DNA of 62,967 bases, counting the filler, from Collodictyon triciliatum (taxonomy: Eukaryota): assembly GCA_043381765.1 (NCBI GenBank). It is 7 parts of 7 records of this genome, joined end to end, with 100 filler letters (N's around TTAATTAATTAA, not from the genome) between each part and the next. Parts side by side here need not be neighbours in the genome. Positions count along the whole stretch, not along the records: positions 1 to 10,005 come from JBHJMP010002828.1; 6 more parts are not named here. The stretch is one strand, 5' to 3'. The position numbers and the translations under genes were made by a program. This document shows positions 1-28,767 of this stretch, in pieces. The notes under the pieces were generated by a model. The model had not been told where the DNA came from, did not search any database, and was given only the letters and a program-made list of their open reading frames with translations. Positions within the stretch are counted from its first letter, which is position 1. Each line of letters begins with the position of its first letter.

Positions 1-997
1 TTTTTTGTTTATTGTTTTTTGCCGTCACGCATTATATTCAAGAATTACCCTTTGCTTACGAATTACATCACTACCGACAGAGGGACTTCTATTCATCTAT
101 TTGCAGAAGGTAATTTTTCATATAAATGTTCATTACCTTTAGAGAAAATAAAATGAAAAGAGTTGGCCCAGAGCCAAACAACTATACACTTGCTGTAACT
201 ATGGAATTTTTTTATTCGACCTGGTGACCGATGCTATTTCGACGTGGAATGTCATGCAAGTCGTCTGTATCGCGGATTGGCTCATTTAAATCCTGAGGAA
301 ACCTTTCTTTTGAGGCGCGAATGCGTTCATCTTGTGTCACATCTGAAAAAAAAAAAAAAACAGTTTGTCATGTCAGAATTTATGCAATTATTTTGTTAGG
401 TTGCTGATACAAGCCCTTAATATTAGATGAGAAACTCCGTCATTTCATGAAATGTATAAAAATCTAAAAATAAATCAAAAAATATTTGTAATATCAGCAA
501 TGTGTAAGTTGAAAATATGGCACAAGAGTATGTCGATTCATCTGCAGTCGACTTTCAAAATTGACAAATTACCAGTATTGTCCAATTTCATAAGTTGAGG
601 GATATTTTGGATCACAAATAATCTGTAGTGAGGAGAATCCGCACAGGGATTTTCGCTTAGCCACAAAACTTTCAGGTTCTTACATCGGGTCAGATAGCGG
701 ACCTCTCTCAAGTCGCATATGTTATTTTTGCGCAAATAGAGCTCTGCAAGACCTCCACACGCCCCAAAGTGCTTCAGGGTTGATATGTTGTTGACACTTT
801 AAATTTATCGAGAGATATCAGAAGAGTAAAAAAAAAAATTTTTTTTTAATGAAAGGAGGCTTTGATTTTTCCATTAAAAATAAAGAAATCCTTGAAGATT
901 ATATATGAAAGTAAATATCAAAGTTTGAACATGTCTCTTCGAGTCGTATAAACGGTGAAAATAGAATCAAAAAAAAACATTCCGTAGCTTTTTTAAA

Positions 998-2519: not shown

Positions 2520-2915
2520 TTAAAGGAGTTGATTTAGACTCGAGTCCATAATTTTCTCGACAAACTCAGAAGCCTTGTTCTTCAGTCCAGTGATTTTGGG
2601 TTGGTTGGAGGTGAGCCTCGCTGCAACGGCAAAAAGGCGGGCAAGCGTAGAACTGAAGGCTTCCAAAGCATAAGGGATGATAAAGTCCACGATAAACACC
2701 GCATTCAGCCCGATGATAGCAAAAACAATCCAGTCATTACCGGGCACCAGTTGCTGGACAAGTGCACCAAAAAAGGAAAGATAGAGCAACAACCAGCAGT
2801 TAATCGAAAGGCTATCATCAGAGTCCAAAAGGTACGGCTCAAATCGATTTTGGAGTGTAATTGATATCTTTTATTGAAAAAATACCAATTAGTAATTAAA
2901 CTACACACGCTTTCC

Positions 2916-2991
<76 letters not shown>

Positions 2992-5900
2992 TGCAATATA
3001 AACCTGAATCAGGATGAAGAAAACAAAATAGAGAATCGCTGGTGATGTGTAAGGAACAGCAAATGCAGTAAATCCAAACAAAATTGATTGAATTACCCGA
3101 ATGATCACCCACCAGTCATATTTCTGGGCATTTATTTGTGTTAGTATTTAAAATTAATTGAATAAAATCGGCGTGGCTTCTTGTATCTGGCTTACCTCTT
3201 CGTAGATAGCTGAGATTCGATCCACTTGAACGCGACAAATGATTTCAAAAGTTGATTGAGTAATATCGAAAGGCTCAGTTTCTTCTGTTCGTTCATGTTC
3301 ATTCTTTTCATGCATACCGCCATTAACGCCCAAGATAAAGTTGCTGTCATCTTCAAATTTATTCATCTCTACGTCTTCCATTTTTGCCTCGTGGGTGCGA
3401 TTGTAAACCCCAGCACTCTTGGTTTCTATAGCTATGGTGCTTTCGTGCTCATCTTCACTTTTTTCCTGCGAAATAAAATAATTAGATTTTTCTCACATGA
3501 TGGATCGTTATACGTAAATCAAACCGAATCAGGTCGCTGGATGTCTCTTAGTTGCTCTTTGGATTGTATGCTTCTTAGCCTTCTTGCTCTTTTTACTATA
3601 GACCACAAGAGACTAGGATACAAAAACATATACAACAAGCCTGGTATTGCGGCAGCTATCATTTTTGCATATTCATCGGTTATGGGATTGCATTGTATCC
3701 AGGGATAAGTGTTTACAAACCATAAGTCGAATCCTTTATCATGTAAAGTGCATCCAAAAGTGCTGATTACATCTTGCACCACCGAAAAATATGTACCTTC
3801 CAGGAAAATAAACATGATTACCACAACCTATGAATTACAATAGTCAGCATTTGTTTCATTATTAAAATTAAAATCGAAACTGCAAACCTTCTCGATGTTT
3901 TTCCGGTCTCTTTTTGCGATAAATTTTTTTAATGCAAGTAGAGCCATGAACCATATGGCGGGAATTCGAGCCAAATTCAATAGCGATATGATGTGGGGGT
4001 GGTTTCCAACGATGCACTCTAAAGTCGGCAACTTTAATGAAAACAAATTTCCGACGAATTTTCCAGTTAGGTTTATCTCTGGCAAAGTTACAATATTGCC
4101 AAGTACTTGAAGAATTTGAGTGTAAAACAGGAAAATATCCAAAGATCCTGTGAAAAAAATTTTTATTAGATACTAAATAAGTTGATAATCATAATCATAA
4201 TGATTAATCATAAGGTATGTAATTTACCGACCTGATTCGGTTTGGTCCTTGGGATCACTTTTGATGGTGTAATTCTCCTCGATCTCATCAATACTCTCCT
4301 CTACCCAAGCTGAGCCAACCTGATAAACAACTCCGAAAAAAAGAAGAAGAAGAAACGCAATAATCTTGAGCGCAGAGTAATCTGATGCACATTCTTTGCA
4401 TTCTCCACTGTCAAATAAGTATCCATCCTCGCATGAAGAACAACTTCTCCCCGCATATCCTTTTTCACAAGGAAAATCATATGCATCATTGCTAATGAGC
4501 ATTCTGCTAAACATAGAATCTGGAACATAAAATTTGCACACGCCTGGATTCAAACAAGGAACTATTTGGACTATTCTGAGGATATCTGGTGTAAAATAGC
4601 ACTTTTCCAAGGAAATACCGTCATTGCAATCGCATTCCTTTGGACACTTAAAGCAGCGGTTTGCGAATCCAAAGTATCCAGGCAAGCATTTACACATTCC
4701 GAAGTCATGATAACTTGGGTCGATATCCACATTCATCTCGATCAACCCTCGACGCGAAATAATTAGGGGACACAAATACTTATCTGTCGTCCTTTGTAAA
4801 GTGTAGGACTCGGTAGCATTCATAAATGAAGGAATAAAATCTGATGAATTATGATTCATACTCGTATTTTTCAACCCTAGATATTCGAGTTTAGTGAATA
4901 AACCATAAGATTCAGATATGCTTCCAACAATTGGATTGCCAGTCAAATCAAGAGAAATCCATCTTGACAATATTCCCAAATCAGCAAGTTTTGATATCAT
5001 ATTGTTCCTTATACTTACTCTCCTTACGTTTTTTACATAATCAAGAACCTTATAACTAAGTTCACCGTAGAGCTGATTGTCGTCTAGAACTAGTGTTTCG
5101 TAATTGTACAAGAAATCATCAAATTCGTTCCAAGGAGATATGAATAAATTAACATCCCCTGAAAAAGAGTTGTTTCTTAAGTCTATGGATATGAGGTTAG
5201 GAAGATTCCAAAACATCGTTGGCATAGTTCCATGAAATCTGTTGTTCGAGAGAGTCAACGATTTTAAATTTTCAAAGTTTTCAAATATGTATGGTATAGT
5301 CCCATTCATCTCATTATTCGAAAAGTCTAATTTTTCTATTAATGGAGAAGACCAGTCTTTTGATATAGTGCCTGTAATATGATTTTCGCTAATATCAAGT
5401 ATCCTCAAATACGGTAAATTGAAGGAAGGAAGAGAATCATTGAAATTGTTTCTGAATAACCATATTTCGTTTAAATTCATGCAATAACTAAAAGCAGGAA
5501 CTGGACCTAATAATCAAAAAGAATTTTAAGAAAATGCAACTTCCATCCTACAGTTTTTTTTTTCTCACCACTCAGATTATTATTAACAATTTCTAAAATC
5601 TTGATATTATGAAGGTCGCTGAAATCCGGTAGTGTTCCTGAAAGTGACTCATTTTAGCATGTATTTTCTCGATGATGTCAGAAGGAAAAACAAACCACTC
5701 AATTCGTTGGACGAAAGCATAAGTTTTAAGATATTTTGTATCCCACTAAAGTTAGGGACCGTTCCTGTATTATCAAATTAGTCGTTGGTCCAGTAATGAA
5801 ATGAACAACTTAAAAACTACCACTCAGCCGATTGTTTGATAGGTCAATGGTCTCAACACTCTGAATACTCTCGAAATTCGGTATTGTTCCTGTTTAAATG

Positions 5901-6462
5901 TTAGTTTCTATCTCTATTTTTTCGATCAATTTTTAACAAACCGTAAAGTTCATTGCTTGATAAGTCAATTTCTACGACATAAGGAATTCTAGTGAAGCTC
6001 GGAACAGTTCCTTGTTAGAAAAAAAATTAGCATTTAAGAAGAAAAATAATAATTGCTAGTTACTAATTACCTGTTAGATGATTTACTCCCAATGACAAAA
6101 TGGCGATGTTTGGAATATATTGAGATTCTGGGACAGTTCCTGAAATATGATTCAGAGGATAAAACACAAGTGCCTTGAATAATTCAAATTGAAAGTTTAT
6201 AAAAAAAAAAAAAAAATTACCGGTAAGATGATTGACCGAGAGATATAAGATCAAAAGCGATTCCGTAAACCGAAATTCTGGAACAGTACCTATAAAAGTT
6301 TTTACATTTCTGATACCGAGTAGCTTATATATGAATAAAGCATTAAATATAAATAGAAGACATTACCGCTGAGATAATTGACTGACAAATCCAAGACTTC
6401 CATAAGCGGAGTGTGTTGTAATTCAGGAACGGTGCCTGCGATAAGATTCATAATTTGATACC

Positions 6463-6529
<67 letters not shown>

Positions 6530-9400
6530 GTTGATAAGTTTTAACAAGAAAAAAAACTAATTGCCTTTCAGATGGTTACTTCCTAAATACAAAGACATAA
6601 GCATTGGAGTGTGTTGAAATTCTGGAATGTTTCCTGTAATAGTATTTAAGTTTCAATTATAAGATCAAGTTTTTTCTGCTAAACATAGTAATATACAAAC
6701 AAAAAAATTAATTAGATACCGCTCAGTTGGTTGAACGGCGCGTAAAATATTCGAAGAATTGGAGCGTATTGGAATTCTGGAATGGTCCCTGTCAGATTTT
6801 TTGAAAGTCTTTAACAAGTAATTTTTATAAAATAATATAATAGAGCGAAAGAATATGAATTACCAGTAAGCCAACATCTTCACCATCCTGCACAAAATTG
6901 AAAGGAAGAATAAAAAAAAAAAAAAATGAATTACCAGTAAGCTGGTTGACTGACAAGTAAAGATATTTAAGCTTTGGTGTGTACCGTACTTCTGGAATAG
7001 TTCCTATTATAATATTCAAAGTTTGATACTCAACTAATCAAATTTACAATTCAACATATCAGACCAAAAAATAATAATAATAATAATAGACCGCTCAGCT
7101 GGTTGAATCCCAAATCCAAATAATGGAGAGTTGGAATATATTGAAAGTCTGGAATGGTGCCTGTTGCGTTACTTTATGTTAGAATCACATCGATAAGATC
7201 AAAAAAGGAAGCTATTTCAAGGGGTAAATATTACCGCTGAGAAGGTTAACTGCCAAGTCCAAACTTCGGAGAATTGGATTAAATTGAAAATCTGGTAGGA
7301 TTCCTGTGACATTTTCAATTTGATATTTGTTAAAACCTCTATCATCTCGCACAAATTGAAATGAATAATAGATAAATAAAAAAAAAATCGGCTTCAACTG
7401 GGAGTCCTTGAATCATTTTTTCAACACAAAATAAGATATATATTACCACGTAGAATATTATTTTTCAAAATCAGATGTTGGAGTATTTGGTTGTGTTGAA
7501 AATCTGGAACGGTTCCTGTTAAATTATTTTTAAAATCCATTTTTCTAAAATTTTGATATTAAGCTGGCTTCATAGTTTGATATATCTATTCAAGAAAATA
7601 CTAAAGCTGACCGATCAATTGGTTATTTTGCATATCCAGATAATTAAGCATTAAACAGAATTCAAACTCTGGAACTGTTCCTGTGAGTCATTAAAAGTTT
7701 GAGAAGATATATAATTTTTAAAATTAATAAATTCAACGCAAGGGAGGGAAAAAAATACCGCTTAGTCGATTTACTCCCAGATCCAAAATTTCAAGCATTT
7801 GACTGTATCGAAATTCTGGAACGGTTCCTGTAATAATATCCGGATGTTAGTCAAGTAAGCTTCGTAAATTAATCTAATATACAAAGATATATAAGAAATT
7901 ACCACTGAGGTGGTTTACTGTCAAAGATAATGTTTTGAGTATTGGAACGAATTGATATTCTGGGATGATTCCTATACAATCATTCAAAATTTGATGACAA
8001 GTAAATTTCTAACATTAACATAAGAATTATAAGTAATGAAATAACCGATAAGATGGTTGAATCCCAAGGACAAATATTCGAGCATAGGCGTGTACTGAAA
8101 TTCTGGAACAATTCCTGTAATGTGGTTCATATTGTGGCTTCAAATTAGGTTGATTAATTAATATAAAATACAAGGGAGGAATTAGACCAGCTATTCAAGT
8201 TTGAATGGAATAAAGATGGCAAAAGAAATTACCAGTCAAATGATTGAATGCCAAATTCAAATTTTGAAGCATGGGAATATATCGAAATCCTAGAACGGTT
8301 CCTAATATTTTATTCAAATATTAAGCCAAAATCAGCTTCATAAAATATGTTAAAATAAAACAGATAAACAACCGCTTAGCTGGTTGGATGTTAAATCCAA
8401 GGTTTCGAGCATTGGAGCAAAAAGAGTTTCTGGAACCGTTCCTGTAGTAACAATCAAATTTTGTTAACATATTCATCGTAGACAGTCATTTATTGATGAT
8501 TAGGATAATATTAATAATAGATAGATAACAACAGCAACAAAAAAAAAAAAAAACTTTGCAATTACCATTCAGTTGGTTGGATGAAAAATCCAGACTTTGA
8601 AGAGTTGGAAGATTTTCAACAACTGAGAAAGCCCCCTCAATGTCCCCTTTTAGGTTATTACTCGACATCCACATTCCAATAATAGGACATGTTCCTCGCT
8701 GTTCAATAAATATTGGGATTTAAAAATCATGTAATTTTATGCTGTATTCAATCGAGTAATGGTGTAGCATATGGTACAAAAGATATTAATTAACAAAAAA
8801 AAAAAAAATACCGAGGTTTCTTCCTCTGTACAATCCCAATAACATTCGAGTCCAAACCATTGACAAATCGGAATATCCTTTTCTTTCCATCCAAAATTGA
8901 AAGTCCAATTGCTGCCTCCAAATTTCTCATAAAAAAGCACTAGAGTTTCAAACTGACTCAAAGAATCTTCTTTTTTAAAATATATAACTTCGTCCATTTG
9001 TTTGATTGGTAGATTATCGTAGGAAGAAACATCGTGCGAAGAAATATCATGCAAAAAAAATTGATCAGAAGAATCATCCTTCTCTTCTATTGAATTCGTT
9101 AAATTAAAACTCTTCATTATGGGCGAATGATCAGATTCAACCACATAATCTGGATGAGAATGACAAGATTCTTCATAAAACTTTAGCATTATTTGGAATG
9201 CATGTTCGACATTCATTGAAAGTAATTCCTCTTTTGTGTGGTTGCATTCGGTTCTTAACATAAAAAAATTATTAGTTATAGCAAAAAATAATCATGAATT
9301 TGACATCAAAAATGATTACCTAGCTACGGACAGGGTGGTGTCGATCAATACTAAGATGATGACCCCGAAAAATATCGCTTCCAGCTTACCACTTTCAATT
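2520..9400 (-). CDS. LRR / Cys-rich / multi-pass (about 7 TM) receptor-like protein; start codon not resolved
   Basis: LRR N-cap (TLVLFYEKFGGSNW..GW....ICQWFGLEC); 19 single-repeat 69-nt exons at 5569-8441; large exon 4232-5506 with more LRRs and a Cys-rich region (CKCLPGY..., CEKGYAGRSCSSCEDGY..GECKEC); then hydrophobic exons (IFLFYTQILQ, STFGC..YPWIQC, YEEKYDWWVIIR, RFEPY) that join in frame. Confidence 0.85.
2916..2988. repeat. (AAT)n microsatellite in an intron
   Basis: Directly visible; similar arrays at about 1002-1107, 13212-13310, 33997-34108, 35198-35296 and 36936-37172. Confidence 0.95.
5569..8441 (-). repeat. Tandem array of 19 exon-plus-intron units, each exon 69 nt = one 23-aa LRR
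   Basis: Exons: 8373-8441, 8233-8301, 8046-8114, 7903-7971, 7759-7827, 7612-7680, 7447-7515, 7235-7303, 7092-7160, 6935-7003, 6720-6788, 6565-6633, 6367-6435, 6221-6289, 6071-6139, 5942-6010, 5821-5889, 5696-5764, 5569-5637. Every junction splits a Gly codon in phase 1. Confidence 0.95.
6855..6942 (+). mobile_element. 54-nt poly(A)-ended insertion with perfect 17-bp direct repeat (different internal sequence)
   Basis: ATGAATTACCAGTAAGC at 6855-6871 and 6926-6942, flanking caacatc...aaaggaagaat followed by an A run. Confidence 0.6.
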
Positions 9401-10005: not shown

Positions 10006-10105
10006 NNNNNNNNNNNNNNNNNNNNNNNNNNNNNNNNNNNNNNNNNNNNTTAATTAATTAANNNNNNNNNNNNNNNNNNNNNNNNNNNNNNNNNNNNNNN
10101 NNNNN
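10006..10105. other. Artificial contig linker
   Basis: N44-TTAATTAATTAA-N44 with stops in all six frames; identical at six places in the window. Confidence 0.97.
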
Positions 10106-13260: not shown

Positions 13261-13278
13261 NNNNNNNNNNNNNNNNNN

Positions 13279-13310
<32 letters not shown>

Positions 13311-16300
13311 GTTATAAACTCAGCTTTTTATTATGAATTGAAAATGAAATTCGATAGCTGTGGTTAAAAAAATAATTACACATTAGAGGCTTCTGGGCAA
13401 AAGTTTACAAATTTATCAGATGGGTCTTATTTTGGGGATGTCGCTCTTATTTTTGAAGAGCCTCGTATGGCATCCGCCAAAGCAATTTCATACTGTGAAT
13501 TACTGATATTTCGTAAGGTAGGAGCCAAATTTTAGTTTATATAGTTTGATCATTCGATGTTTATCAAAACTATCGGTATGTACGCATACTCACTTCATAT
13601 ATGTCATTAATTTCCCTCCATTATCATCAAATTTGATATAGTCTGATCTTCAAATGTTGTGTGAATTTTATCCGCTTCTATCCGAGAGACTTCAAGAACT
13701 TATCAATCTTAAGATTAAAGACAAAGAAAGGTGAGAATTATTCATGGACAAATGGGGTATGGTAGAAATAAATTGTGGTAGATACGCAACCTCTCAATAG
13801 TTTAGAATAAAATTGTGAGATATATTCACTAATTGTATATTAACACCATACAGCGTTGATAGGGGCAGGAATCCAAGTATAACAGAAAGTGTGACCATGA
13901 GCAAAACATCTTGTAACAAAAGTTATTTGAATAGCCATCGATCTATGAGGCATGCTGCAATGCCATTGGCATCAATGATGCTGAATCGAAATATATCTAG
14001 GATGATATCTAGAGATACAAGGTTTTCTTCTTTATAAACAGAAAAGTCACATCGTTCTTATTCGATATTATAATATATATATCATTCCTTATATCCAATT
14101 ATTCTCTTTATTTAAAAAAGGTCAACCTTAGTGGAGTCTAGGGTCTTGGCAAAAAGTGCATCAAGAGTACAGAACTCGTTATCAATTTTATACAATTCAT
14201 ATTTTGATAATAATTATTATTACTATTATTATTATTCCTTTGCTCGATTCAAATTCAAAATTTAACATATGATATACTTTGATCATTTGCGCAGATTATG
14301 TCAGATGAAGTTGGCTCTATTTATTTCAAAGATGCAACACGTGTTGTAGAATCTAGTGATTCTAGTGAGGACGATTCAACCCCTCATAAACGCGGACAAT
14401 CTGGTGATAAGGTTTGTTGTGGTTTTTTTTATTTTCATGTTGTTTTCAGGTGTCTTTTTCAGTTTTNNNNNNNNNNNNNNNNNNNNNNNNNNNNNNNNNN
14501 NNNNNNNNNNNNNNNNNNNNNNNNNNNNNNNNNNNNNNNNNNNNNNNNNNNNNNNNNNNNNNNNNNNNNNNNNNNNNNNNNNNNNNNNNNNNNNNNNNNN
14601 NNNNNNNNNNNNNNNNNNNNNNNNNNNNNNNNNNNNNNNNCATACATACATACATACATACATACATACATACATACATACATACATACAGGAAATCGAA
14701 CTATCGGCGTTCCAACGTAGGCAATCACAACCTACCACCAATATTCGGAAAACAGCCCCCGTTCATCACCAAAGTGCCTTTGTTCGCACTGGCTCAATTA
14801 CTCCATTAACACGCCCAGCTGCAGTCACGCACGAAAACGCCTCTGCAGAGAATTCTGGGCAAACAGTACAGAATAGAAAAAGTCTGATGGTTTCACAGAG
14901 ATCTTGTACTGCACAGAAATCACGACTACTTACCCCAGAACCATGGGTTTCAAATGAGGTATTCTAAATGCCATGTGCGTCAATAGTTTAATTTTTAACA
15001 AACCTCCTGAAAATATTTTTTTCCCCCTTAAATTCAAATTAATTATTGGTAAATGTGTATACATCAACAATAGGTGACCGTTCGAGATGAAAAGCTGAAT
15101 ATCGATACGACCGAATTGGAGCCAAATATTGTACCGAAATTCGAAAAAAATAAAAGCACTTCAAGCAAACCCACCCAAGAGGGTCTGTTGAGTATATCGA
15201 AAAGCTTGATATCAGTCAGGAAAATGGAAAGCGAGTCCTATTGTAAGCTCTTTCTTCATATATAATAAGATCTTCGATTACCGTTTTAAATCAATTTATT
15301 ATTCGTAACGTATCGAATATTTTGTAATGTTCACAATTTGGTGGGAAAAAATCAGTTTCTATTGGCCCGCATACCTCAAATGGATTTGAAGAGCAGCGAC
15401 AAGCCGTATTGGTTGATCAGCAAAGTTTATCGAACATCCGCACACCCGACCGACTCATGACACCTGGAATTGTAAAGAGTTCTTCGTATGCTCAGGAATA
15501 CATGGAACACCCGTCAGATCTGACCAACGATAACACACATCAAAAAAATGTCAATGAATCGGCGACTTCAGACACCTTCATATCGAGCGGACAAGTTTCT
15601 TTGTCTGACTCTGTGACGATTCGAGAAATGGCAGATGAGATACGAAATGAAAAGCAAAGAACATCGTTGCTTATGAAGGTTTGCAAACACTTTATGAAAA
15701 AAATATTATGGTAATTCATTTATCTTTTTTTCCAAAAAAAAAATCATTTATCAAAAAATTTAAACCAGTAACCCTTTCCAAACGAATAGGTGTCTCGGAA
15801 TGAAATCGATTTCGTAAGTCGGTGGGAGGATACAATAGAAGAATCGACGCCAGAACCCATCTTTTTGGATTCCCTCATCGGCGATGTTGTAAGGAATGAA
15901 GAGACAATAGAATCGAGCGGCTTCAGAAAAGACAGTGTTGAGTTTTATCATAGTTTGCCGGCTACTTCCTCAGTAGAGTATGGTCATAATTTGGCCATCA
16001 ATGTGTACTCACTGCTAGCACATTCCTCGATTGCGACTGATGAAATTATGGTTTCGTCCGTATTGAATGACATCTACAACCACAATAGTATCTGGCAAGA
16101 TTTTGATGAAGGCAGCAGTGGAGAGGATACGCTTGATGATAACATCGATTCAACAATTGATTGTACTACCGCAAGAAACCGTGATGGCCGTCCAATAGCG
16201 TTTCAGTTTTCGATTGGAGATGACCCCGATTCACCCAAGGATGTAGAAGAATTCGGGAATGAAGATGGAGAGGGACTGATGCACTTTGTCGTTCATGAAG

Positions 16301-17299: not shown

Positions 17300-20200
17300 A
17301 TGAATCCCAAGCGAAGCTCGCGGCCCTTCTTCCATGATACTGACCTCAAATATCTTGAGCTGGGTAGAAATCCTCTTGTATACAATCCTTTGGTACGTGC
17401 TCTTTTTATTTATTTCTGTTGCCTTTCTTTTATCTTTGTTTTTTTGTATTATCATTATTTATTTATTTATTTTTACTCAAACACACTTATTTTTAAAGCA
17501 TAGTTTCTTTTTATCTTTCATCCAATCATATCTTACCATAGAACTAGATCTTGGTTTTTGCTGTGTAGTCCCTCCTTCTGCATTAAAACTTACGCCAACT
17601 TATTTATTAGCGCTATATTATATTGAAAATATTCATTTTCTATGTGATAGGTTGATACTTGGGCGAGTTATGACGAAGTGCATAGGCACGTGATATTTTA
17701 TGATAACAGTCAAGTATCGTGGCTTTCCTTTACATCTCCCAGAGTTCGTTCAAAAGCAATTACGTATGGCCCAATCATATCTACAATACATATATATAAA
17801 TAGAAGCATGAATGTGTAAGCAATACATCAAAAATTACCATGTGAATATGAATGACAATATGCGCATGATTATTTTTTAGTATCAATCACAAAGGACCTG
17901 TTCATTCCATAAAACTTTCGGTGGATGGCTCATTCCTCTGTTATCAAGTTTCTGAGACGGAGATTGTATGTCGATTCTGGATTGCATTTAGGAATTCTTG
18001 TGGTAAAGGTTGCTAAGAGTATGATTTTAGGGATTTCACGGACTAGCAAGGCCTGTAGAGTTTCGTTACAAATGTCACAAAATTGAAAGCGGGAATAGAA
18101 TATTGTCTACTATTTGGACGCACGTCGGAGAGTTGTTCCTTGTCACTAAATTCGGTTTAGAGCTGCTTAAGGTCATCATAATTAAATGTATTGATTCGTG
18201 TAGATACGACTTACAAATCACTCGAGTGACTGGATAAGTGCATGAAATATTAACATTGATAATAATTATATAAAATGTGCCAAATATCACAGATATCATC
18301 TTCCAAATCCGCTGCCAAACTCATCAGAACATTTTCTGTCGATGTATCTTGGTTTATCTATTCTGTAAGATATACATTTATTTTCATTATTTAATTAACT
18401 AAAAAAATCATCTTTTTATCAAAAAAAAATCATCATAATTGGATGAATAATTCCTGATATGTATTTTTATAGCATGAAAATAGATTATTGGTGATTGGGA
18501 CTTCTCCTTCGGGAAAGTATGTACAATTGGAACGTATCATATTATATTTTAATTTTCTTCGTTCATTTCAATAGTTAAATTGACATATCTCTTAGATGAA
18601 AATAATCAAATTCTATATTCATAGCCTGTTGGTTCCGTATCACTTCCCTCCTGGCTCCGTAATCAAATTACCGAAATTTTCCCTCACTGTCGAATCAGGC
18701 TCATACGTACAATCAAATGAAGTTTACCTATCTCAGATGTATGTAGAGTAATATTCATTTGTATGGAGGAAAATATTTTTATGATTGCATTTGCCACAAA
18801 AAAATAAAAAAACTGTCTGCAGATATGGTATACTGTACTGTATTCATATAGACCCTGAAAGGAGAAAAGTTACACTTTATCAAGTATGGAATATGTCATC
18901 GAAACTTGCATATACACATGGATTATAGTCCTTATATGACGTTTCTTCATGATGCTATACATTCGATAAATGCTCTAAACTCGAATTCCACCTCATCATA
19001 GCTTGGAAGAGAAGAAGTGAAAACAAGGCGCATATTCGATCTTCCTGTCGGCCAAGATTTCTCGATCAGTGTTATCGATAATGTACTGGTTGTTCATTCC
19101 ATAGACTCAAAGGCAAGTATTCGCATACAATCAATATCTATTATTTGAATGTATGCCAATCACTTTAAGCTCTGTAAATACAATGATTGAATATATAAAT
19201 GACATAGGTTTCCATGCTCTTTGATTTGAAAAGTCTTCCGGATGTAAGCTAAAATGATTTGATATACATGCACTTTGCAAATGAATGTTCATATATTGTG
19301 TCGCTTTATTGATATGGTTCTTCACAACCATACTATAAAATTATGAAAACCCGGTCCATATATTCTCAATTTATTGCTTAGGTTCCTATTTCACTTCCTT
19401 CGGTGATTGTTCACCAATCGAATGACCGAACAAGGCGCTCTACAATAACAACCCCTTCAATTTCTGGCTATTCAGACCGAAGTCAAATAGTTGATATCGG
19501 CAATACCTTGCGAAGTACTGAAGTTTTGGCAACCATATCGTCATCCATGATAGATGACTCTTTAACACAGACATCACGGCATCAGCCTGAAATGTGTACG
19601 TAAAATACATTACACGTGAAGTGGGCGTATCAAATTGTAACCCATATTGCATTTGTTTGTTTATTTGTTTATTTGTTTATTTGTTTATTTGTTTATTTGT
19701 TTATTTGTTTGCTTGCTTCTTTGTTTCTTTGTTTCTTTGTTTCTTTGTTTGTTTACTTGTTTACTTGTTTATTTACTTGTTTATTTACTTGTTTATTTAC
19801 TTGTTTATTTACTTGTTTATTTACTTGTTTATTTACTTGTTTCTTGTTTGTTTGTTTTGTATATAGTAATTTTTCCTTTATTCGATTCAATAGTTTCATA
19901 AGAAAAACTATTATCTTCATATTTCTGATTCAGAATCATCTATATCTTTAGATATAGGAAACGGCTTCTTCTTTCAACCAAATATTTTATTTGATCCTGT
20001 TCAGGTTTTCTATTTATATTTATATCTATATCTTCATTTAGCTACATGATTTATGATAACCCCCCCCCCCCCCCCCCCTTCTTTTTTTTTTTTTTTTTTT
20101 TNNNNNNNNNNNNNNNNNNNNNNNNNNNNNNNNNNNNNNNNNNNNNNNNNNNNNNNNNNNNNNNNNNNNNNNNNNNNNNNNNNNNNNNNNNNNNNNNNNN

Positions 20201-20421
20201 NNNNNNNNNNNNNNNNNNNNNNNNNNNNNNNNNNNNNNNNNNNNNNNNNNNNNNNNNNNNNNNNNNNNNNNNNNNNNNNNNNNNNNNNNNNNNNNNNNNN
20301 NNNNNNNNNNNNNNNNNNNNNNNNNNNNNNNNNNNNNNNNNNNNNNNNNNNNNNNNNNNNNNNNNTATTTTTTTATTTTTTTTTTTTTTTTTTTTATTTT
20401 TTTTATTTTTTTTATTCCCCC

Positions 20422-20460
<39 letters not shown>

Positions 20461-22983
20461 ATATAACTGGGGCTGCGGTTCTAAACAAATCATACTTTCT
20501 ATTCTATCTAATGATTCGGATACAGGGTATGATATTTGATATACGTATCAATTTGGGTGAAGTTTCAAAAGACCTATCTGACAAAACAAGAATGATACAT
20601 TTCTTGCTAAGGAGACACAACGGGAAGCAATATGCACTGGAGGTTAGAAAGAAAGCCAAATATGTTGTCATTATTTCCCTTTATTCGATTCAAAGTAGCC
20701 AAATATGTTTTCATAATCCTTCTTATTCTTATCTATTACCACGCATTTGTTTCAGCTCCTTCGAACTTCCATCGAACGTGCTCATCCATTAGCTGATATC
20801 TCACATGTCTTTGAGAGTCTTAACAAGATTTACAAATCTGTTCTTGAGGAAAGGTTTGAAACCCTCATCTGTATTACATCAAAATAGAACCAACGTTACT
20901 TTTTCGTGTATGTTCTATTTTCACTAACAAGGCTCGGTCTAGCACTTATGTAATCACCTAAACTCTTTTATTTATATTATATAGAATAAGAGAGATGACA
21001 TTCCGTCAATCGAGACAAGCTCTCCCAGTCCCTGAGCGGTATTTCACGCTCTACCATAATTCATTAAGATATTTAGCATGTATTCTACATAGGCATATTA
21101 ATTAAGTTTCATGTACTCATCTTTTTGGGGGAAACAATAGTCCATCAACAGTCTTATTGACCGAAGAGCTTCTTCAAAATGAAGGTTCCCCTTTCTCTGT
21201 GTATTTCTTTATTATTTGATGTTAGAAAGATATTTCACTATTAAACCTCGTTCCAATTCAACGCATTCACTTGATATTTCTCTCAACTCAGAACCAGCTG
21301 AATTAAACTCTCCCACACTCGAAGAGTAAGATATTTATATAAAGTACGATACAAAACTTCTAAAATTATAGTAATGATGATAATAATGATAATAGTCCTC
21401 GGGGTGATGCATCATCGAACTTAAAGGTATTTCCAATCAAAAGTGCCAGTTCGTTCGAAATCCTTTCGTATCAGAAAAACAATCATGTAAATAATAATCC
21501 CAGATCTGTTTTGCTAGGGGTCTCGACATGACAATTACTTGGACGGAATCATCGTTATTAATCAGGACGATATATATAAAAGTGTCTTAAAGCCTCTAAT
21601 CGGAGCACCTGTAAGTTATTGAGGCATAACCATCGTGCATATCTTGCACGCTTATAGTCACTGTCGTTGATATGGTATTATTTGTTTTTCGGTTGGTTTT
21701 TCTTTTTCTCTATGTTTTTGTTTTTGTTTTTGTTTTTGTTTTTGTTTTTGTTTTTGTTTTTGTTTTTCCCCCTTTATTCGGTTTCAAGTATCACTATCGC
21801 TAATAGTATTCGGGACATATTTGTTGTGGGCGAAATACTTGTGTTTAGGGAATCGAATTCCGTTATTTTTTATCCGTTTGTATGGAGTATGTCCGAAGCC
21901 TGTCCATCAACCGCCTGAAAGTACATCACCATATATATCACTTTGTCGTCGACCTTCTCGTTAAGAACAAGGCTTTCTACCAGCTCCACCAAGTAAGAAC
22001 ATCCCCACTCGAGCGTTTACTTTATCATACTTGCCCTAAAAATTGTTCAAATCAGTTATTTGGCGGGCTCTAGTGGATTTCTTTTGACAAAAATTATTCT
22101 CATGCGCTCTTGTAGTTCCTGCAGTATCACATAATTTCAGACTCGTTGTCTGTGGCATGTCAGCTCCTTTCTATTGAAAATGAATACAAACCAGCCTATC
22201 AGGTATTAGCATTCTCTGGGAATGCGCTTTTTTACTTCTTTTTTCTCTTTCTTTTCTTTTTCTTTTTCTTTTTTCTTTTCTTTTTTCTTTTCTTTTTTCT
22301 TTTCTTTTTTCTTTTCTTTTTTCTTTTCTTTTTTTCTTTTCTTTTTTCTTTTCTTTTTTCTTTTCTTTTTTCTTTTCTTTTTCTTTTCTTTTTTCATTCG
22401 ATTGCTGACCATATAATTCAATCTATTCATGAAAAAGTTGATTTTTTTTCTCATCATATTCTAAAGCTTGCATTAGACATGTTTAAAAGATTGGGTGTGA
22501 ACGACACGATAGTGGAGGCTTTGTTATCAAGAAAACAGGTGAACTTTGAATCGAATAAAGGAAGAAAAAAAAATCAAGAAAACAGGTGCGCTCGTCAAAA
22601 GAAGAAAAAAAGACTCCTGTATGCCACACCCAATCATGTTTGTAAAGTATCAAACTCTCGTGCCCTCATATGGACCATTGCAGGTTGTGCCCGCACTGCG
22701 GTTCGTCCGGAGTGAAAAGGTGAAAACAATGCTGCCGAGACGTTTTTTGGAGGTGGCCCACTCTCTCGATGACCAATCACTGTACTTCATCACATACAAG
22801 GTTCGTCGCTCTCTCTGCCGCGCCGTTGTTTCGGCCTATTCCCCATATGCTGACGGTCTTTTCCTCTCTTTGCAGTGGCTGGAGCGCAGGAACGAAGCAA
22901 CGCGAGGCACAAAGCAGTTTGCACCAGAGGATGGATGCGATGAGTATATCTCTATCTACCGAGAAATGTTTGGCAGAGAATAG
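17300..22983 (+). CDS. RMC1: Regulator of MON1-CCZ1 complex (RMC1/C18orf8, Mic1 domain)
   Basis: N-terminus YLELGRNPLVY..., KGPVHSIKLS, VIKLPKF, FSISVIDNVLVVH; C-terminal Mic1 motif MEYVRSL...FYQLHQ|FLQYHIISDSLSVACQLLSIENEYKPAYQ|LALDMFKRLG..IVEALLSRKQ|VVPALRF; more than 20 short introns. Confidence 0.9.
19652..19860. repeat. Compound (TTTG/TTTA/CTTG) microsatellite in an RMC1 intron
   Basis: Directly visible. Confidence 0.9.
20654..20709 (-). mobile_element. Ultra-short insertion (30 nt) with 13-bp TSD, same family
   Basis: On the + strand: AGCCAAATATGTT [gtcattatttccctttattcgattcaaagt] AGCCAAATATGTT; the insert reverse-complements to actttgaatcgaataaagggaaataatgac. Confidence 0.8.
21658..21805 (-). 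mobile_element. Older copy of the short insertion, tail expanded into (TTTTTG)n
   Basis: Core cctttattcggtttcaagt at about 21771-21789, flanked by TCACTGTCGTTGATA and TCACTATCGCTAATA (3 transitions apart). Confidence 0.55.
22526..22588 (+). mobile_element. Ultra-short insertion (31 nt) with 16-bp target-site duplication
   Basis: ATCAAGAAAACAGGTG [aactttgaatcgaataaaggaagaaaaaaaa] ATCAAGAAAACAGGTG. Confidence 0.8.
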
Positions 22984-23794: not shown

Positions 23795-23894
23795 NNNNNN
23801 NNNNNNNNNNNNNNNNNNNNNNNNNNNNNNNNNNNNNNTTAATTAATTAANNNNNNNNNNNNNNNNNNNNNNNNNNNNNNNNNNNNNNNNNNNN
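23795..23894. other. Artificial contig linker
   Basis: Same 100-nt N/TTAATTAATTAA/N spacer. Confidence 0.97.
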
Positions 23895-24004
23895 ATACAA
23901 AAATAGATACAAAAATAGATACAAAAATAGATACAAAAATAGATACAAAAATAGATACAAAAATAGATACAAAAATAGATACAAAAATAGATACAAAAAA
24001 ATAC

Positions 24005-25258
24005 CTGAGTTGTTAAAAAACGACAATAAATCCACAGGGATGAGAGAGCCATAGCGACCTGTTGAAATAGTGCATGTTGAGGTAGAGCGAATAAAAAATA
24101 ACAGGATAAATCAGCAAGTTTAATTTATACTGTAATTTGTACACAAGTCTCGTCATTATTAAGATAAATACTCAAAAATGATGCCGGATCAGAGTCGAGC
24201 AAGCTGGTTAATTCTTGTTGTAAAACAGGTTCGCCTTTCACAACTGCAAGTACGCTCTGAATAAGTGGCACCTTCTCGGCCATTTCAAGACCTCCACCTA
24301 GCGTCCCGCTCTCCAGCAGCTACATCAAGCGTTGAGGAAAATTGATCATTAAAAAGCAAGAAAAAAGGCAATAANNNNNNNNNNNNNNNNNNNNNNNNNN
24401 NNNNNNNNAAAAAAAGACAATAAAAAAAAGACAATAAAAAAAAGACAATAAAAAAAGACAATAAAAAAAAGACAATAAAAAAGACGGCGAAAACACAAAT
24501 CGACACAGGAAACAAAAGCCCACCCCACGATTTGGATCCTCAACCATCTCGACCGTCTCCGACCAGAGCGTCTGTCCACACCGGGCGCAAAAGTCCTCCG
24601 CAGACGCATCTCGCCCACCAAACTCACGCGTCCTGAACGGAAGACTCCTCAGCCGCTCCACCAGACTCGTCCGCGCACAAACCTCCTCCTGCGCCTCAGC
24701 CCGACGTCTGCGCAGCGCACTCAAAAGGCCAGACGCGTGGCGCACTCTGCGGAAGTAGACCGGCCGGTCTGCCGCCGCCAAAGTCGCATCTCCATTATTT
24801 CCCGAGTCGGAATACGCGAGATGTTGATGATTATCACCATCATCATCAATATCAATGTCGTCATCGTTATCATTATCATCGTCATTGCCGCTTGGACTTC
24901 CACCCATATCCCACGATGTCCTTCTGCGCAGAATGTCGAGTTCATGTTGGCGCGTGTCTTTTGCTTGCCCACCGGCCTTTGCCAAGCTTTGCTTCACGTC
25001 TTTTTCTCGGCGCAAAACAACCGGGGCGCGGCTGGGCGCGGCGCGTCGGGCTTCGTCGGGGATTTCTGTCTTCTGTGCGGCGAGAGGCGGGCGAATGGGC
25101 TGCCCAGTCGACTGCGAGCGATTCCCACTGCTTTTGTGAGGCTCGTTCGGAATCGAACTGCGGCTTGTTTGCGAAGGCCTTGACTCTGGCGTGGACGCAC
25201 GCGAATGGGCAGGCTTCTTTGCAGGCTGCGGCGCTTTGGACGGGCTTGGGCGGGACAT
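24005..25258 (-). CDS. Hypothetical protein with Pro/Ser/Arg-rich N-terminus; 3'-truncated at contig end
   Basis: GC-rich ORF from ATG 25258, spliced in frame to exons reading LLESGTLGGGLEMAEKVPLIQ...CVQIT and VAMALSSLWIYCRFLTTQ. No family recognised. Confidence 0.6.
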
Positions 25259-25727
25259 GCTTGCGTCTCGTTTGGTGTTCGGGCCGGTGGCGGAAGTTTG
25301 CTACGGGGTTGCGGGCGTGTCCAGTTGGCTGTGCACTCCCTGCTGTTCTTTTCCTTTGTGACTCTTTCTGTTTCTCTCTGTTTCTCGGTGTTTCTCTGTC
25401 GGAGAGTTTGGTTTGGCGGCCGAGTGACTTGTTTGTTTCCGTGAGTGTTGTATTGTGTTGTAAAGCATTCCGTTGCAAAAAAAATATATAAAAAAAAAGT
25501 CCCACACAAATTGTAGTGTTGATACCATAAATGATATGATAGCGCGGTATTTTTTGTTTTTGTTTTTTTCTGTGGCTCGTCAAAAGAATGCGGATGTAGA
25601 TGTAAGCGAGTGTGTGTGACAGCTGTCTTGCCTCAAGAAGCAAAAAGAAAGAAAAAAAAAAAAGAAGATAATAATGTGTCCGTGAGATTTTTATTTGGAC
25701 ATTGACGGGTTTTGGTGAAGAATATCG

Positions 25728-27560
25728 TCATGCTTTGGGCCAGTTTTCTGTATTCTTCCAAAAAGGAGAGGTAAAAAGGTTCAGCATTGTGAACGAGATC
25801 AGAACGGTTTGGAGAATCAGGAATGGCTTCATATTATACTTCCATGACTTTACAAGAGGTATTTCAAGGCCATACATGTAATTTTCGATGGTGATGGATA
25901 TGAGTTGAGCTATGAGCTCGATAGATAATTGTATTACTATACTGAATAGCATGTGCTCAATGCTGCTAATCACCTCAAAAGTAAAATAGTCCTTGACTGG
26001 CCGGCAAATAAATAGAATCAAGGGTATGAGAATGGCTATCTGCAACTCTGAGGCATATGTGTAGTATGAACGATTGGACCGATAGGCCATGATGTAGTCG
26101 GCGATGCCATCAACATGATTGAATCCGCGAGTAAGTGCCATGAGACTTGGCAAGCCTGCTACATCGCGAGAGAAGTGGAGCTCGAACAGACGATTTGCAT
26201 CCTTGGACTTTGGGTTAGCTTTTTCACGACGTTCTCCGGATTCAACGATGTTATCGAGAGGTTGTACCCTTCTGTCCGATAAATCACAAGCCGCAGCATG
26301 CTTTTTGGCGTATTGAATCATTCTCATGATACAAATGGCCCTCAGTACAAATGTAGCTCGAAAGAAAATCTCTGATACCCCAGAGGCCAGTGCCATCAAC
26401 AAGGTTTCATTCAAGTTGGGCGAGTCGGTGATCATCAAACGTAGCACAGCTAGTCCGATAAAGTTGTAGACATTCCCAAATATTATGCGATACTTCAAAT
26501 GTTCTTTGGACTTGTAAATCAACTGGTTATTCTGGTATGTATCTGTGATATTGAACACAAACGGGAGGATTGCCACTCGTCCGATGATACGAATCATAAA
26601 CCCGGACCTCATAAAGTATGGAATCAGAAGAAATACAGAAGTGTTGTACACAATGCCATATGCAATAAAGCCTTTGAACAAGGCCATGGGAGTACCATCA
26701 GAGGATAAAACATCATACCGATGGGCCTTTTCATTTGGTTGGGGTTTCATATTTGGATTGCAGTAATTCTTCACATGTCTGAAGATCAATACACAATGGA
26801 GCAAAAAGCAAACGTAATAAATTATGGAGAGATATCGCAGTTGAAATATTTGCCTCAGGGAATATAAAGCTATGTGGAAGAACGACATTGGTAGCGTCAA
26901 TCTGAATACAAGGGGATACACTCTCTCCTTCCCAAAAACATGCAACGCGACTGCAGTTATACCAAAATACATGGCAAAATTAAACAACGTGTATGCGGAC
27001 AAGAAATGTATCAGCAGATTTGTATGGGTTCTGTGCATATACCACAACGGGGAGAATATTGCCACTGTGATTGAAATCGGGATGAGACCAAGAATAACCG
27101 AGTGATAAAACATCCAGACGAGGATATTGAAGGCATATTTAAGTGACTTCCAAAAGTTGCGCTGATGCCCTGGTTGGATAAAAGTCTGCTCTCTTTTCAA
27201 AGCTCTTTCCAGTGGCGGCGGCTTCTGTGTCGAGGAATTTACTTTGTTGCTAATACATGACTTTGGTTCTTCCACATGAGCCACCTCCGATAATACATAA
27301 AGCGGATCACTTTCTATATCCAGCCCTCTTTCTTTACTTTTGCCTTCATCTGGTAGCCCAAATGATATGCCACTCTTTCCATCACCTTTATTACACACTT
27401 GGGATATGTCGATAGTCTCCATGGGTATATTTTCTGCGATCTCTATGTCCTTCCTTCCCTCATCCTTGGCGTAGGTTCTTCTGTCCTTCGGTGGGTGGGC
27501 TCCCTCGCGGACGGGTTTGGCTGGGAGGAAGTGAGTCTCGATCGATAGCTCAAAGTCCAT
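25728..27560 (-). CDS. Intronless multi-pass membrane protein of unknown function (about 610 aa)
   Basis: Uninterrupted ORF with a hydrophilic N-terminus and about 10 hydrophobic segments; likely start MDFELS at 27560; similar to 42712-43962. Confidence 0.8.
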   Translation of the reverse strand: MDFELSIETHFLPAKPVREGAHPPKDRRTYAKDEGRKDIEIAENIPMETIDISQVCNKGDGKSGISFGLPDEGKSKERGLDIESDPLYVLSEVAHVEEPKSCISNKVNSSTQKPPPLERALKREQTFIQPGHQRNFWKSLKYAFNILVWMFYHSVILGLIPISITVAIFSPLWYMHRTHTNLLIHFLSAYTLFNFAMYFGITAVALHVFGKERVYPLVFRLTLPMSFFHIALYSLRQIFQLRYLSIIYYVCFLLHCVLIFRHVKNYCNPNMKPQPNEKAHRYDVLSSDGTPMALFKGFIAYGIVYNTSVFLLIPYFMRSGFMIRIIGRVAILPFVFNITDTYQNNQLIYKSKEHLKYRIIFGNVYNFIGLAVLRLMITDSPNLNETLLMALASGVSEIFFRATFVLRAICIMRMIQYAKKHAAACDLSDRRVQPLDNIVESGERREKANPKSKDANRLFELHFSRDVAGLPSLMALTRGFNHVDGIADYIMAYRSNRSYYTYASELQIAILIPLILFICRPVKDYFTFEVISSIEHMLFSIVIQLSIELIAQLISITIENYMYGLEIPLVKSWKYNMKPFLILQTVLISFTMLNLFTSPFWKNTENWPKA

Positions 27561-28340
27561 TGTCCCTATTCTGTTTCGACAATTCCTACCGCAGAGAAGA
27601 TTTCCTGAGTCTCTGTTGAAACTAAGAGTCAAATATTCAAAAATAATCATTGAGGGGCACTATGATCGAGAGTGGGATGTTTCTGGTGTCAGCTGCCGAT
27701 CGTAGAAAAAGGTTTTTTTTTTTTGGCTTCTTTTTTCTCTTCTGACATCCTTTTGGGATTTGCTTTTTTTTTCTTTTTTTAGTTGTTTCAAAATTGATGA
27801 AGATGGCACACACAAGCTAAGAGACGAAAGGACATGCAAAGTTGGGAGCTGCACCGACAAAGCTCATGTGCGTGTTGGGTACACAAATGAGAGTTTGCGA
27901 CTTCCACTGTGAGTGAACATGTTGCCTTCGCCGCCACACTCGTTTTTTCAATCCTGCCGGTACAATATTTTCTGTTTTACCGATGCAGTTTTCTTCTGTT
28001 TGCTTACTTCTGCGGATAGAATAAAGGAGGATTTTCTACAAAAGGATAAATCTTGATTCACACCGCATATGTCTTAATATGGTATCAGTACTCATTTTCT
28101 GGCCATCACGCATCAATCAGCAATCTCGACCGCGCGATTCCAGCTTGGCGCACCCGATCAGCAAAAGCCTTGCAGCCTCCACACACAGTTTTTTTCTAGC
28201 TAAACCTAACAAGATACGCACTCACCGTCTCTCTTTTTTTTTTCTTTCCTCCAAACGCTATGTCCCAATCCAAAGACACGTATACCTTCTGTGTTGCCTG
28301 TTCTTACAAAACCCTTTCGACAAATCCGAAGCGAGCCAGA

Positions 28341-28767
28341 ATGTCTGATCAGAAAGCAGCGAAACCTTCCAACCCGGCTCCCCATCCGGCTTTGATCAGC
28401 TCGTCCACAACCACACAAGTCAAGGCGATCACCAGCCAGCGAAAGATGTTTCTGTTTCTTTTCGTCTTGTCCTCCATGTTTGCAGGCGCCGCCTCGACGC
28501 AACTCGCATACAATCTGAGCAAGGTTTGTAGTCCGGTTCATGTAGCTGAACGCTCTGCACTCTTTTGTTTTGTTTTCACTTTTCACTTCTTTTTTTTTTT
28601 TTCCCTTTGATTGCTCGACATATGAGAAATGCTACTTCCGATTGAGTTCCATGCAAGGCAGTTCTCCAGCCAAAGAAGCAAGCCTTCCTTGTATCTCATT
28701 TTCTTCCTCCTTTCTTTCTTTTGTCGGCCTCGAAACTCTGGGCGCACAGAAAGGACAGACCGAGTGA
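28341..28767 (+). CDS. Putative small single-pass membrane protein (about 77 aa, 3 exons)
   Basis: MSDQKAAK...RKMFLFLFVLSSMFAGAASTQLAYNLSK|AVLQPKKQAFL|KGQTE* can be assembled with GT-AG sites; the downstream exons are uncertain. Confidence 0.35.

Follow-up and report, generated by a model that had tools for sequence, protein, structure and literature searches.

In plants, each leucine-rich repeat (LRR) of ERECTA has its own 72-nucleotide (nt) exon, the plant LRR unit being 24 residues long. A gene built along similar lines, with a unit of 23 residues, lies on the minus strand of a 62,967-nt stretch of DNA from the protist Collodictyon triciliatum (GenBank assembly GCA_043381765.1; seven joined parts, filler included), referred to below as the window. 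In this gene, 19 consecutive exons of 69 nt, from position 8441 to 5569, encode one LRR apiece. ERECTA-family genes are described as intron-rich in the available part of one report (PMC5902711). For the ROCO genes of the brown algae Ectocarpus and Saccharina, the accessible parts of two papers describe 72-nt single-LRR exons in phase 2, together with relic non-coding LRR copies in introns, exon shuffling and omega values above 1 at some sites (PMC3341825, PMC11378527), and, for Ectocarpus, several splice variants that differ in their combinations of LRR exons (PMC11378527). The same portion of the latter paper cites the genes for the luteinising, follicle-stimulating and thyroid-stimulating hormone (LH/FSH/TSH) receptors, whose LRR ectodomain is made from a run of small exons, all in phase, for which descent from a single prototype exon is assumed (PMC11378527).

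The comparison with brown-algal ROCO genes, already drawn in the original prediction for this DNA, is an apt one, given the 72-nt single-LRR exons reported in both excerpts (PMC3341825, PMC11378527). Judged by these excerpts, type I ROCO arrays and the window gene share one LRR per equal, symmetrical exon, long tandem arrays, an exon start at a conserved Gly (GxxPxxL…LxxLxLxxNxL), variable residues on the concave face and a lineage of protist grade. They differ in the length and phase of the exons (72 nt and phase 2 versus 69 nt and phase 1) and in what the LRRs are attached to: a ROC-COR GTPase in ROCO proteins, whereas the LRRs of the window gene form the ectodomain of a multi-pass membrane protein. 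Pfam found no ROC-COR domain in the window exons or in the relatives of the gene, which belong to the protist Diphylleia rotans, in line with the protist setting first proposed. The glycoprotein-hormone receptors, as presented in the excerpt, resemble the window gene in that an LRR ectodomain encoded by a run of exons is followed by a multi-pass membrane module, but they have phase 2 introns and a seven-helix G-protein-coupled receptor (GPCR). No seven-helix GPCR fold of the LGR type was found after the LRRs here (GPCR matches at E ≥0.3, and a template modelling score, or TM-score, of at most 0.19 for the module of a homologue). Plant receptors are single-pass proteins with a kinase, whereas the window gene encodes a Cys-rich stalk and about nine helices, and no kinase. 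On balance, we consider it likely that the gene product is a constitutive LRR receptor-like protein and that its array grew long ago through the tandem duplication of exons.

The array was delineated by scanning the minus strand for AG, 69 nt and GT, with an open frame required. Eighteen of the 19 exons were recovered in this way, and the exon at 6633-6565, which has a GC donor, was added by eye and then checked; acceptors are AG throughout (19/19), and donors are GT in 18 cases and GC in one. The last base of each exon is G and the next exon opens with GN, giving a Gly codon split after its first base (phase 1-1), and the 19 joined exons form an open reading in a single frame. The introns of the array measure 52-146 nt, and of the 20 introns lying between the exons or at either end of the run, 19 contain an in-frame stop. 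An independent repeat finder reported a 101-nt unit in 14 copies with 61-70% identity. The run of consecutive 69-nt, phase 1-1 exons announced by the original prediction is thus upheld by the scan, the splice sites and the single open frame, and the exons are, as it stated, symmetrical, so that skipping or duplicating any of them keeps the frame. Intron 14 (6140-6220) is the only array intron that is both a multiple of three (81 nt) and stop-free in frame; its retention would add 27 residues in frame. A 60-nt poly-T run (6466-6525, plus strand) lies within intron 12.

At the protein level, the period is exactly 23 residues across the 19 exons, with the LxxLxLxxNxL pattern in tandem. Over the 19 units, the first positions are the most regular (G1 in 19, T2 in 15, V/I3 in 17, P4 in 18, E/D5 in 15), followed by a looser segment (F6 in 14, Q7 in 9, Y8 in 7 plus F in 5, P10 in 12, L12 in 13) and then by the LRR core (L15 and L17 in 16 each, N20 and L22 in 19 each, S/T23 in 15). 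The description of this framework as largely conserved therefore holds at most positions and fails at Q7 and Y8, while the strings of x residues quoted for it (ET-D-TS, QN-N-AF etc.) are indeed the translation of exons 1-12. When the 22-residue translations of single exons were scanned with Pfam, 4 of the 19 gave weak LRR matches (E 0.025-0.12) and none reached the cut-off; single LRR exons are too short for such scans to be informative.

Taken as a whole, the locus holds a single intact gene, which encodes a cell-surface protein. The model comprises 1,486 codons in at least 28 exons on the minus strand (Table 1). Its product begins with a signal-peptide-like start, followed by an N-terminal domain and its Cys cap, an array of about 29 plant-type LRRs, a stalk rich in Cys and, last, a membrane module with about nine helices; from hydropathy alone, the membrane segments number about eight to nine. 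An LRR ectodomain on a Cys-rich multi-pass membrane protein, as first suggested, is what the gene model, the hydropathy and the alignment with homologues agree on. It is equally true that the LRRs downstream of the array lie within one large exon, exon C (5506-4232), which exceeds the Pfam cut-offs for LRR_4 (44.9 bits against 27), LRR_1 (42.9 against 20.6) and LRR_8 (42.4 against 27) and whose Cys columns are invariant in the family alignment. On the other side of the array, a profile of the 69-nt exons matches the end of exon B (8619-8566, E 8e-7), and Pfam found no match in exon A alone, the LRRNT_2 cap included. Neither a 5' limit nor a start codon (ATG) was found for the upstream fragment (9387-9320); some 620 nt further upstream there is a pair of 44-N runs, which may conceal the first exon of the gene. 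An in-frame TAG between exons D and E raised the question of a ciliate-type stop-codon reassignment, which was rejected, as the TAG is spliced out with a canonical 60-nt GT-AG intron. An (AAT)n microsatellite occupies positions 2916-2987, inside the intron between exons G and H.

Relatives of the gene were found with an exhaustive, profile-free protein search, for which exon C was the query and which returned 46,584 proteins at E ≤0.001, mostly generic LRR proteins. Matches spanning the whole exon, its Cys-rich part included, are 33-43% identical to it, and no transcript or protein reached 50% identity in this search; either the source species differs from D. rotans, then, or the D. rotans transcriptome lacks this gene. 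A word-indexed search with the Cys-rich part and first membrane helix of exon C had given no match among longer proteins. Of the 20 top matches that were looked up, 15 are Diphylleia rotans transcript clusters (EukProt EP00002), two are short fragments (P0008 and P0065) and the other three, which include a plant protein, are giant LRR proteins of a generic kind. When the spliced model was compared by BLAST with 14 full-length Diphylleia members, the alignments were collinear over roughly 1,100-1,300 columns, with E from 1e-127 to 0 (e.g., residues 30-1222 with residues 20-1284 of P0158, E = 0), and a second segment covered the last helices. These homologues derive from complementary DNA, and the collinear alignment validates the exon joins. 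The Diphylleia proteins (P0003, P0158, P0161 etc.), all uncharacterised, are true homologues from the N-terminal domain to the last helix, at 28-34% identity, and share with the window gene the 23-residue 'GT[IV]P.F…L..L.L..N.L' units, the conserved LRRs of irregular form, the pattern of Cys residues and the motifs of the membrane module. They are known as transcripts only, and their arrays count 17-29 units, some irregular in length. The acidic loop of about 90 residues encoded by exon F is found in the window gene and has no counterpart in any Diphylleia homologue; it falls within residues 1223-1328 of the model, between the two BLAST segments.

In a tree of the region alignable to exon C, from which four redundant isoforms were left out, the window gene stands inside the radiation of paralogues, next to the fragment P0008 (support 96/94). 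Among the relatives, Pfam cut-offs were passed by LRRNT_2 (20.7 bits) in P0040 (30.9 bits) and P0173 (26.2 bits), by DUF7630 in P0157 and by LRR_ComC in two proteins. Ahead of the LRRs, some Diphylleia members carry further modules (NIDO for P0161 and P0173, FG-GAP repeats for P0040), and this variety of adhesion-type modules suggests that domains have been shuffled in the N-terminal part of these proteins. Literature searches found no paper joining Diphylleia with leucine-rich repeats and none on DUF7630, and nothing relevant on ComC or on Collodictyon; the family is known so far from Diphylleia rotans transcripts and a few environmental fragments only.

It is very improbable that the window gene is a decaying or non-functional copy that merely inherited its regular structure. 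Such a copy would account for the start codon that was not found, for the framework residues changed in exons 2 and 11 (P4 to L and L17 to A, respectively), and for the lack of a transcript of at least 50% identity in the exhaustive search. However, about 1,486 codons over at least 28 exons are open with intact splice sites, the framework positions have a ratio of nonsynonymous to synonymous differences (pN/pS) of 0.27, all the family-invariant Cys and membrane motifs are kept, and the missing 5' end adjoins runs of N.

As for its origin, the array looks like the outcome of old tandem exon duplication, on the evidence of the exon and intron sequences. Pairwise nucleotide identity between exons averages 56% (range 38-72%), and synonymous sites are saturated, with a proportion of synonymous differences (pS) of 0.68 over all pairs and 0.61 within exons 1-15. 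Exons 16-19 make up a second subtype with shorter introns. Identity plotted against exon offset within exons 1-15 gave no periodicity or sign of block duplication (permutation p = 0.58), and a nucleotide profile of the exons, run over the whole 63-kb window, found no relic LRR exon copies, its only matches being the end of exon B and the 19 exons themselves, which match their own profile by construction. Outside homopolymer runs, the only significant similarity between introns is a stretch of 41 nt at 85% identity (repeat family D5) shared by introns 7 (7304-7446) and 10 (6789-6934), the two longest of the array. Intron 10 also holds a copy of the last 7-8 nt of exon 10 with the donor, 68 nt past the real donor, whose use would shift the frame. 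The 11-mer TGATACCGAGT, reported earlier as residual intron similarity, does occur exactly at 6311 and 6456, in the neighbouring introns 13 and 12; with up to one mismatch it has 4 matches against 0.69 expected, for a motif chosen post hoc, and is at best a weak trace of shared intron ancestry. For 15 of 20 window units, the nearest neighbour lies within the same gene (mean identity 9.8/23 within the gene and 7.7/23 to Diphylleia units). Units 17 and 19 are closest to Diphylleia units, a hint that the one-exon-per-unit plan may be older than the expansion.

A simple history would be consistent with these data. A symmetrical unit made up of an exon (69 nt, phase 1, with the Gly of the 'GxIP' turn at its start) and its intron would have been duplicated repeatedly in tandem, and, because it is this unit that multiplies, introns would come to lie only in perfectly regular 23-residue units, while the irregular, family-conserved LRRs near the membrane would have stayed in a single exon. 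As the duplications are old, the array would now be a fixed solenoid, most likely constitutively spliced. Diversity would then reside at the level of the gene family, in its many paralogues, in differences of whole 23-residue units and in added N-terminal modules. The concave face may bind an external ligand, such as prey, a bacterial surface, matrix or another cell, and the signal might then pass to the polytopic, possibly channel-like, module.

The exposed residues of the array had been called hypervariable. Taking the concave x residues as unit positions 13, 14, 16, 18 and 19, their entropies are 3.07, 2.86, 2.31, 2.61 and 1.95 in the window gene and 3.01, 3.20, 2.85, 2.41 and 2.94 in random 19-unit samples from Diphylleia, so the label does not hold: these positions are no more variable than in units of the family generally. 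Positions 5-11 ('EFQY.P') vary less in the window gene than they do when units of the family are sampled at random. Over all pairs of exons, at saturated synonymous sites, pN/pS is 0.27 for the framework, 0.68 for the other x positions and 0.85 for the concave ones; for the 12 most similar pairs within exons 1-15, the values are 0.22, 0.43 and 1.05, respectively. The concave face thus evolves at about the neutral rate, and the comparison across repeats that had been suggested as a check shows no demonstrable nonsynonymous excess at exposed positions. The x positions of LxxLxLxxN probably vary because they form the unconstrained solvent face of any LRR.

These values also bear on another explanation, the one put forward for the ROCO genes of brown algae: a birth-and-death of exons in the germline under diversifying selection, in which paralogues would gain, lose and exchange exons, and selection for new binding specificities would make the array an evolving recognition surface. 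Between paralogues, the array does change in steps of whole 23-residue units: from the cap to a conserved anchor there are 24x23+10 residues in the window gene, against 28x23+10 for P0003 and 19x23+10 for P0161, and, in a second group, 21x23+9, 28x23+9 and 17x23+9 in P0005, P0158 and P0177, respectively (in this comparison three anchors are unreliable and two proteins have no cap motif). The family is large, with its 15 transcript clusters among the 20 matches looked up, window units 1-15 form a subtype of their own, and intron 10 holds the partial exon end with its donor and has 41 nt in common with intron 7. A concave pN/pS of 0.85-1.05, and the leaning of Diphylleia variant sites toward concave positions, would fit as well. 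Yet recent duplicates are absent (exon identity does not exceed 72%), the introns are unrelated, the 63 kb hold no non-coding relic exons, pN/pS is never clearly above 1, and the excess of variant sites at concave over other x positions has p = 0.19, with 8 of the 17 sites from one cluster. The relic intron copies and signs of shuffling described in the available ROCO excerpts were looked for in the 63-kb window and not found, and, with synonymous sites saturated, the pN/pS values gave no clear sign of the omega above 1 that these excerpts describe. On this evidence, germline birth-and-death seems rather unlikely for the array.

Diversification could instead be somatic, combinatorial splicing skipping different subsets of the 69-nt exons and producing many isoforms from one gene. 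Any subset of the 19 exons could be skipped in frame, and the splice variants of Ectocarpus ROCO, in the part of the report available, offer a precedent (PMC11378527). Among 38 isoform pairs from 8 Diphylleia clusters, however, none differs by an exon-sized indel (23 residues or a multiple); indels of at least 5 residues measure 5, 5+7, 12 and 9+5, and the other differences are truncations or alternative C-termini. This negative is a weak one, as the isoforms come from short-read assemblies of another organism, which collapse repeats, and as clustering at 90% identity may exclude skipped forms. Two further points, also weak, are that the splice sites are canonical and uniform and that, with units skipped, the rigid solenoid would become shorter and any extended binding surface would be displaced in register. 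We regard combinatorial splicing as distinctly unlikely, and slightly less probable again is its boldest version, in which the 19 exons are combinatorially skipped or chosen so that single cells of a free-living predatory flagellate display different receptor versions on a channel-like module; if true, such a choice would give a lineage other than animals, plants and brown algae a recognition repertoire of somatic origin.

Several observations weigh against an array that is fixed and constitutively spliced. Equal, symmetrical exons are just what combinatorial skipping requires, and that all 19 units are still perfectly regular, saturated as they are, could mean selection for interchangeability. 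The concave pN/pS of 1.05 in the 12 closest pairs leaves room for some diversifying selection. Among near-identical Diphylleia variants, dense runs of differences having been dropped for both counts, a first count over 4 groups gave 9 variant sites at 310 concave positions against 4 at 1114 other LRR positions (p = 3e-4); a wider count over 13 clusters gave 9/1000 concave sites against 6/1398 at other x positions (p = 0.19), with 2/2200 in the framework and 33/14,667 outside the LRR units. The nearest-neighbour comparison is asymmetric as well, no close paralogue of the window gene being present in the set. Exon mixing would be possible with this architecture, and nothing shows that it occurs: the diversifying recognition system put forward in the original prediction is left unsupported by the old, diverged exons, the essentially unrelated introns, the lack of relics, the lack of a pN/pS excess and the lack of exon-sized isoforms. 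These negatives are weak, given that the assemblies behind them are short-read ones from a different organism and that the comparisons are saturated. Old tandem duplication into a constitutively spliced array is thus the explanation that we retain as likely.

Structure prediction was made on residues 1-345 of the homologue P0007 (13-row alignment). In the model of its array (predicted local distance difference test, pLDDT, 94; predicted template modelling score, pTM, 0.91), every unit contributes two short strands, one at positions 14-16 and the other at 21-2. With a strand at 14-16, the x positions flank the concave strand as in textbook LRRs, and the expectation that the variable residues lie on one face is borne out for P0007, the protein modelled, as distinct from the window array. 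All the matches listed by Foldseek for this model are from plants, nearly all of them ectodomains of LRR receptor kinases, with ERECTA-like 1 (ERL1) first (E 5e-19) and TM-scores up to 0.93. The closest solved folds are the ectodomains of the ERECTA family, FLS2, BRI1, RGFR1 and HAESA, which share with the array of the relative the plant-type 'LSGxIP' repeat with a second short strand.

The membrane module of P0007 was modelled with about nine to ten helices and a small hairpin loop (pLDDT 77.6, pTM 0.77). Foldseek found no significant match to it among solved structures in the PDB (best E 0.22, TM-score ≤0.21), nor did a sequence-profile search of the PDB, and a profile search for shorter relatives of the module gave two more EukProt transcripts only. 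Its language-model look-alikes (similarity 0.95-0.96) are clusters in which 12-25% of the members have PF06011 (Pfam TRP). Of 13 membrane modules, three match PF06011 at E ≤1, the best at 1.5e-4, below the Pfam cut-off, and PF06011 is not listed for the full-length proteins of the family. Fungal and protist proteins with PF06011 have a general plan, a large ectodomain followed by about nine helices, that is similar to that of the window gene. The link to PF06011 is a weak lead.

Table 1. Positions of the exons and intron features of the LRR receptor-like gene in the window, in the order of transcription
Feature	Position	Strand	Sequence	Remarks
Upstream exon fragment (probable)	9320..9387	-	…AIFFGVIILVLIDTTLSVA	signal-peptide-like hydrophobic stretch; open frame, GT donor at 9319; joins exon A in frame
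Exon A	8812..9253	-	…NWTFNFGWKEKDIPICQWFGLECYWDC…	N-terminal domain and Cys-containing cap before the LRRs; aligns with Diphylleia N-termini
Exon B	8566..8698	-		cap end (…CP…) and first LRR; donor also G|G phase-1
LRR exon 1	8373..8441	-	GTVPETLFAPMLETLDLTSNQLS	69 nt, phase 1-1
LRR exon 2	8233..8301	-	GTVLGFRYIPMLQNLNLAFNHLT	
LRR exon 3	8046..8114	-	GIVPEFQYTPMLEYLSLGFNHLI	
LRR exon 4	7903..7971	-	GIIPEYQFVPILKTLSLTVNHLS	
LRR exon 5	7759..7827	-	GTVPEFRYSQMLEILDLGVNRLS	
LRR exon 6	7612..7680	-	GTVPEFEFCLMLNYLDMQNNQLI	
LRR exon 7	7447..7515	-	GTVPDFQHNQILQHLILKNNILR	
LRR exon 8	7235..7303	-	GILPDFQFNPILRSLDLAVNLLS	
LRR exon 9	7092..7160	-	GTIPDFQYIPTLHYLDLGFNQLS	
LRR exon 10	6935..7003	-	GTIPEVRYTPKLKYLYLSVNQLT	
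Intron 10	6789..6934	-	GCTTACTGgtaattcat	146 nt; 17-nt second copy of exon 10 end and donor
LRR exon 11	6720..6788	-	GTIPEFQYAPILRIFYAPFNQLS	
LRR exon 12	6565..6633	-	GNIPEFQHTPMLMSLYLGSNHLK	sole GC-donor exon
LRR exon 13	6367..6435	-	GTVPELQHTPLMEVLDLSVNYLS	
11-mer	6311..6321	+	TGATACCGAGT	intron 13; identical copy 6456-6466, intron 12
LRR exon 14	6221..6289	-	GTVPEFRFTESLLILYLSVNHLT	
LRR exon 15	6071..6139	-	GTVPESQYIPNIAILSLGVNHLT	last unit of the 'EFQY.P' subtype
LRR exon 16	5942..6010	-	GTVPSFTRIPYVVEIDLSSNELY	first unit of the second subtype; introns there 52-62 nt
LRR exon 17	5821..5889	-	GTIPNFESIQSVETIDLSNNRLS	nearest unit is that of a Diphylleia protein
LRR exon 18	5696..5764	-	GTVPNFSGIQNILKLMLSSNELS	
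LRR exon 19	5569..5637	-	GTLPDFSDLHNIKILEIVNNNLS	nearest unit is that of a Diphylleia protein
Exon C	4232..5506	-		1,275 nt; about 9 irregular LRRs, Cys-rich stalk and first membrane helix in a single exon
Exon D	3888..4147	-	…SLDIFLFYTQILQVL…	membrane module part 1; fits the family motif GKxxIxxFHxQTLSIL
Exon E	3525..3827	-	FGCTLHDKGFDLWFVNTYPWIQC	membrane module part 2; the sequence given is the conserved ecto-loop
Exon F	3196..3465	-		acidic insert between membrane helices, specific to this gene
Exon G	3004..3123	-	KYDWWVIIRVIQSILFG…	membrane module part 3
Exon H	2520..2867	-		membrane module part 4 and stop codon

Elsewhere in the window, Pfam scans of 14 long and 90 further open reading frames (ORFs) found no second gene of the receptor family. 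Fragments of other genes were recognised by Pfam at 541-798 (minus strand, LRR_9/SDS22-type LRR), 22116-22980 (plus strand, RMC1_C), 56450-56776 (plus strand, part of a formin FH2 domain) and 58821-59567 (minus strand, C-terminal motif of EB1), and Rfam and tRNA scans gave nothing. A homologue search with the EB1-like ORF gave no match. A block richer in G+C (24000-33000; 0.43-0.52 versus about 0.30-0.35 nearby) contains long, intron-poor ORFs, among them one of 643 amino acids with many hydrophobic segments (25731-27659, minus strand) and one of 577 amino acids that is acidic and of low complexity (30775-32505, plus strand), neither with a Pfam match. Pairs of 44-N runs, 12 nt apart, recur at a spacing of roughly 10.1 kb (10006-10105, 23795-23894, 33897-33996, 43991-44090, 54077-54176 and 60657-60756), and other N runs are found at 1050-1059, 13261-13278, 14467-14640, 20102-20365, 24375-24408 and 47490-47514; these runs look like scaffolding or masking artefacts. 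(ATT)n tracts lie on either side of the 10-N run, at 1003-1107.

The locus offers an unusually clean instance of domain growth by symmetrical-exon duplication, with 19 perfect copies next to non-duplicated repeats that are intron-free. The closest sampled relative of its lineage is Diphylleia, a deep-branching eukaryote whose genome is almost undescribed. The one-LRR-per-exon plan, found in brown algae, in animal hormone receptors and in plant ERECTA, is thereby extended to a further branch of the eukaryotes. The gene also joins a plant-type LRR ectodomain to an undescribed multi-pass membrane module. Should the family prove to be a repertoire for the recognition of prey or of self, it would provide a tractable case for the study of receptor diversification in unicellular predators.

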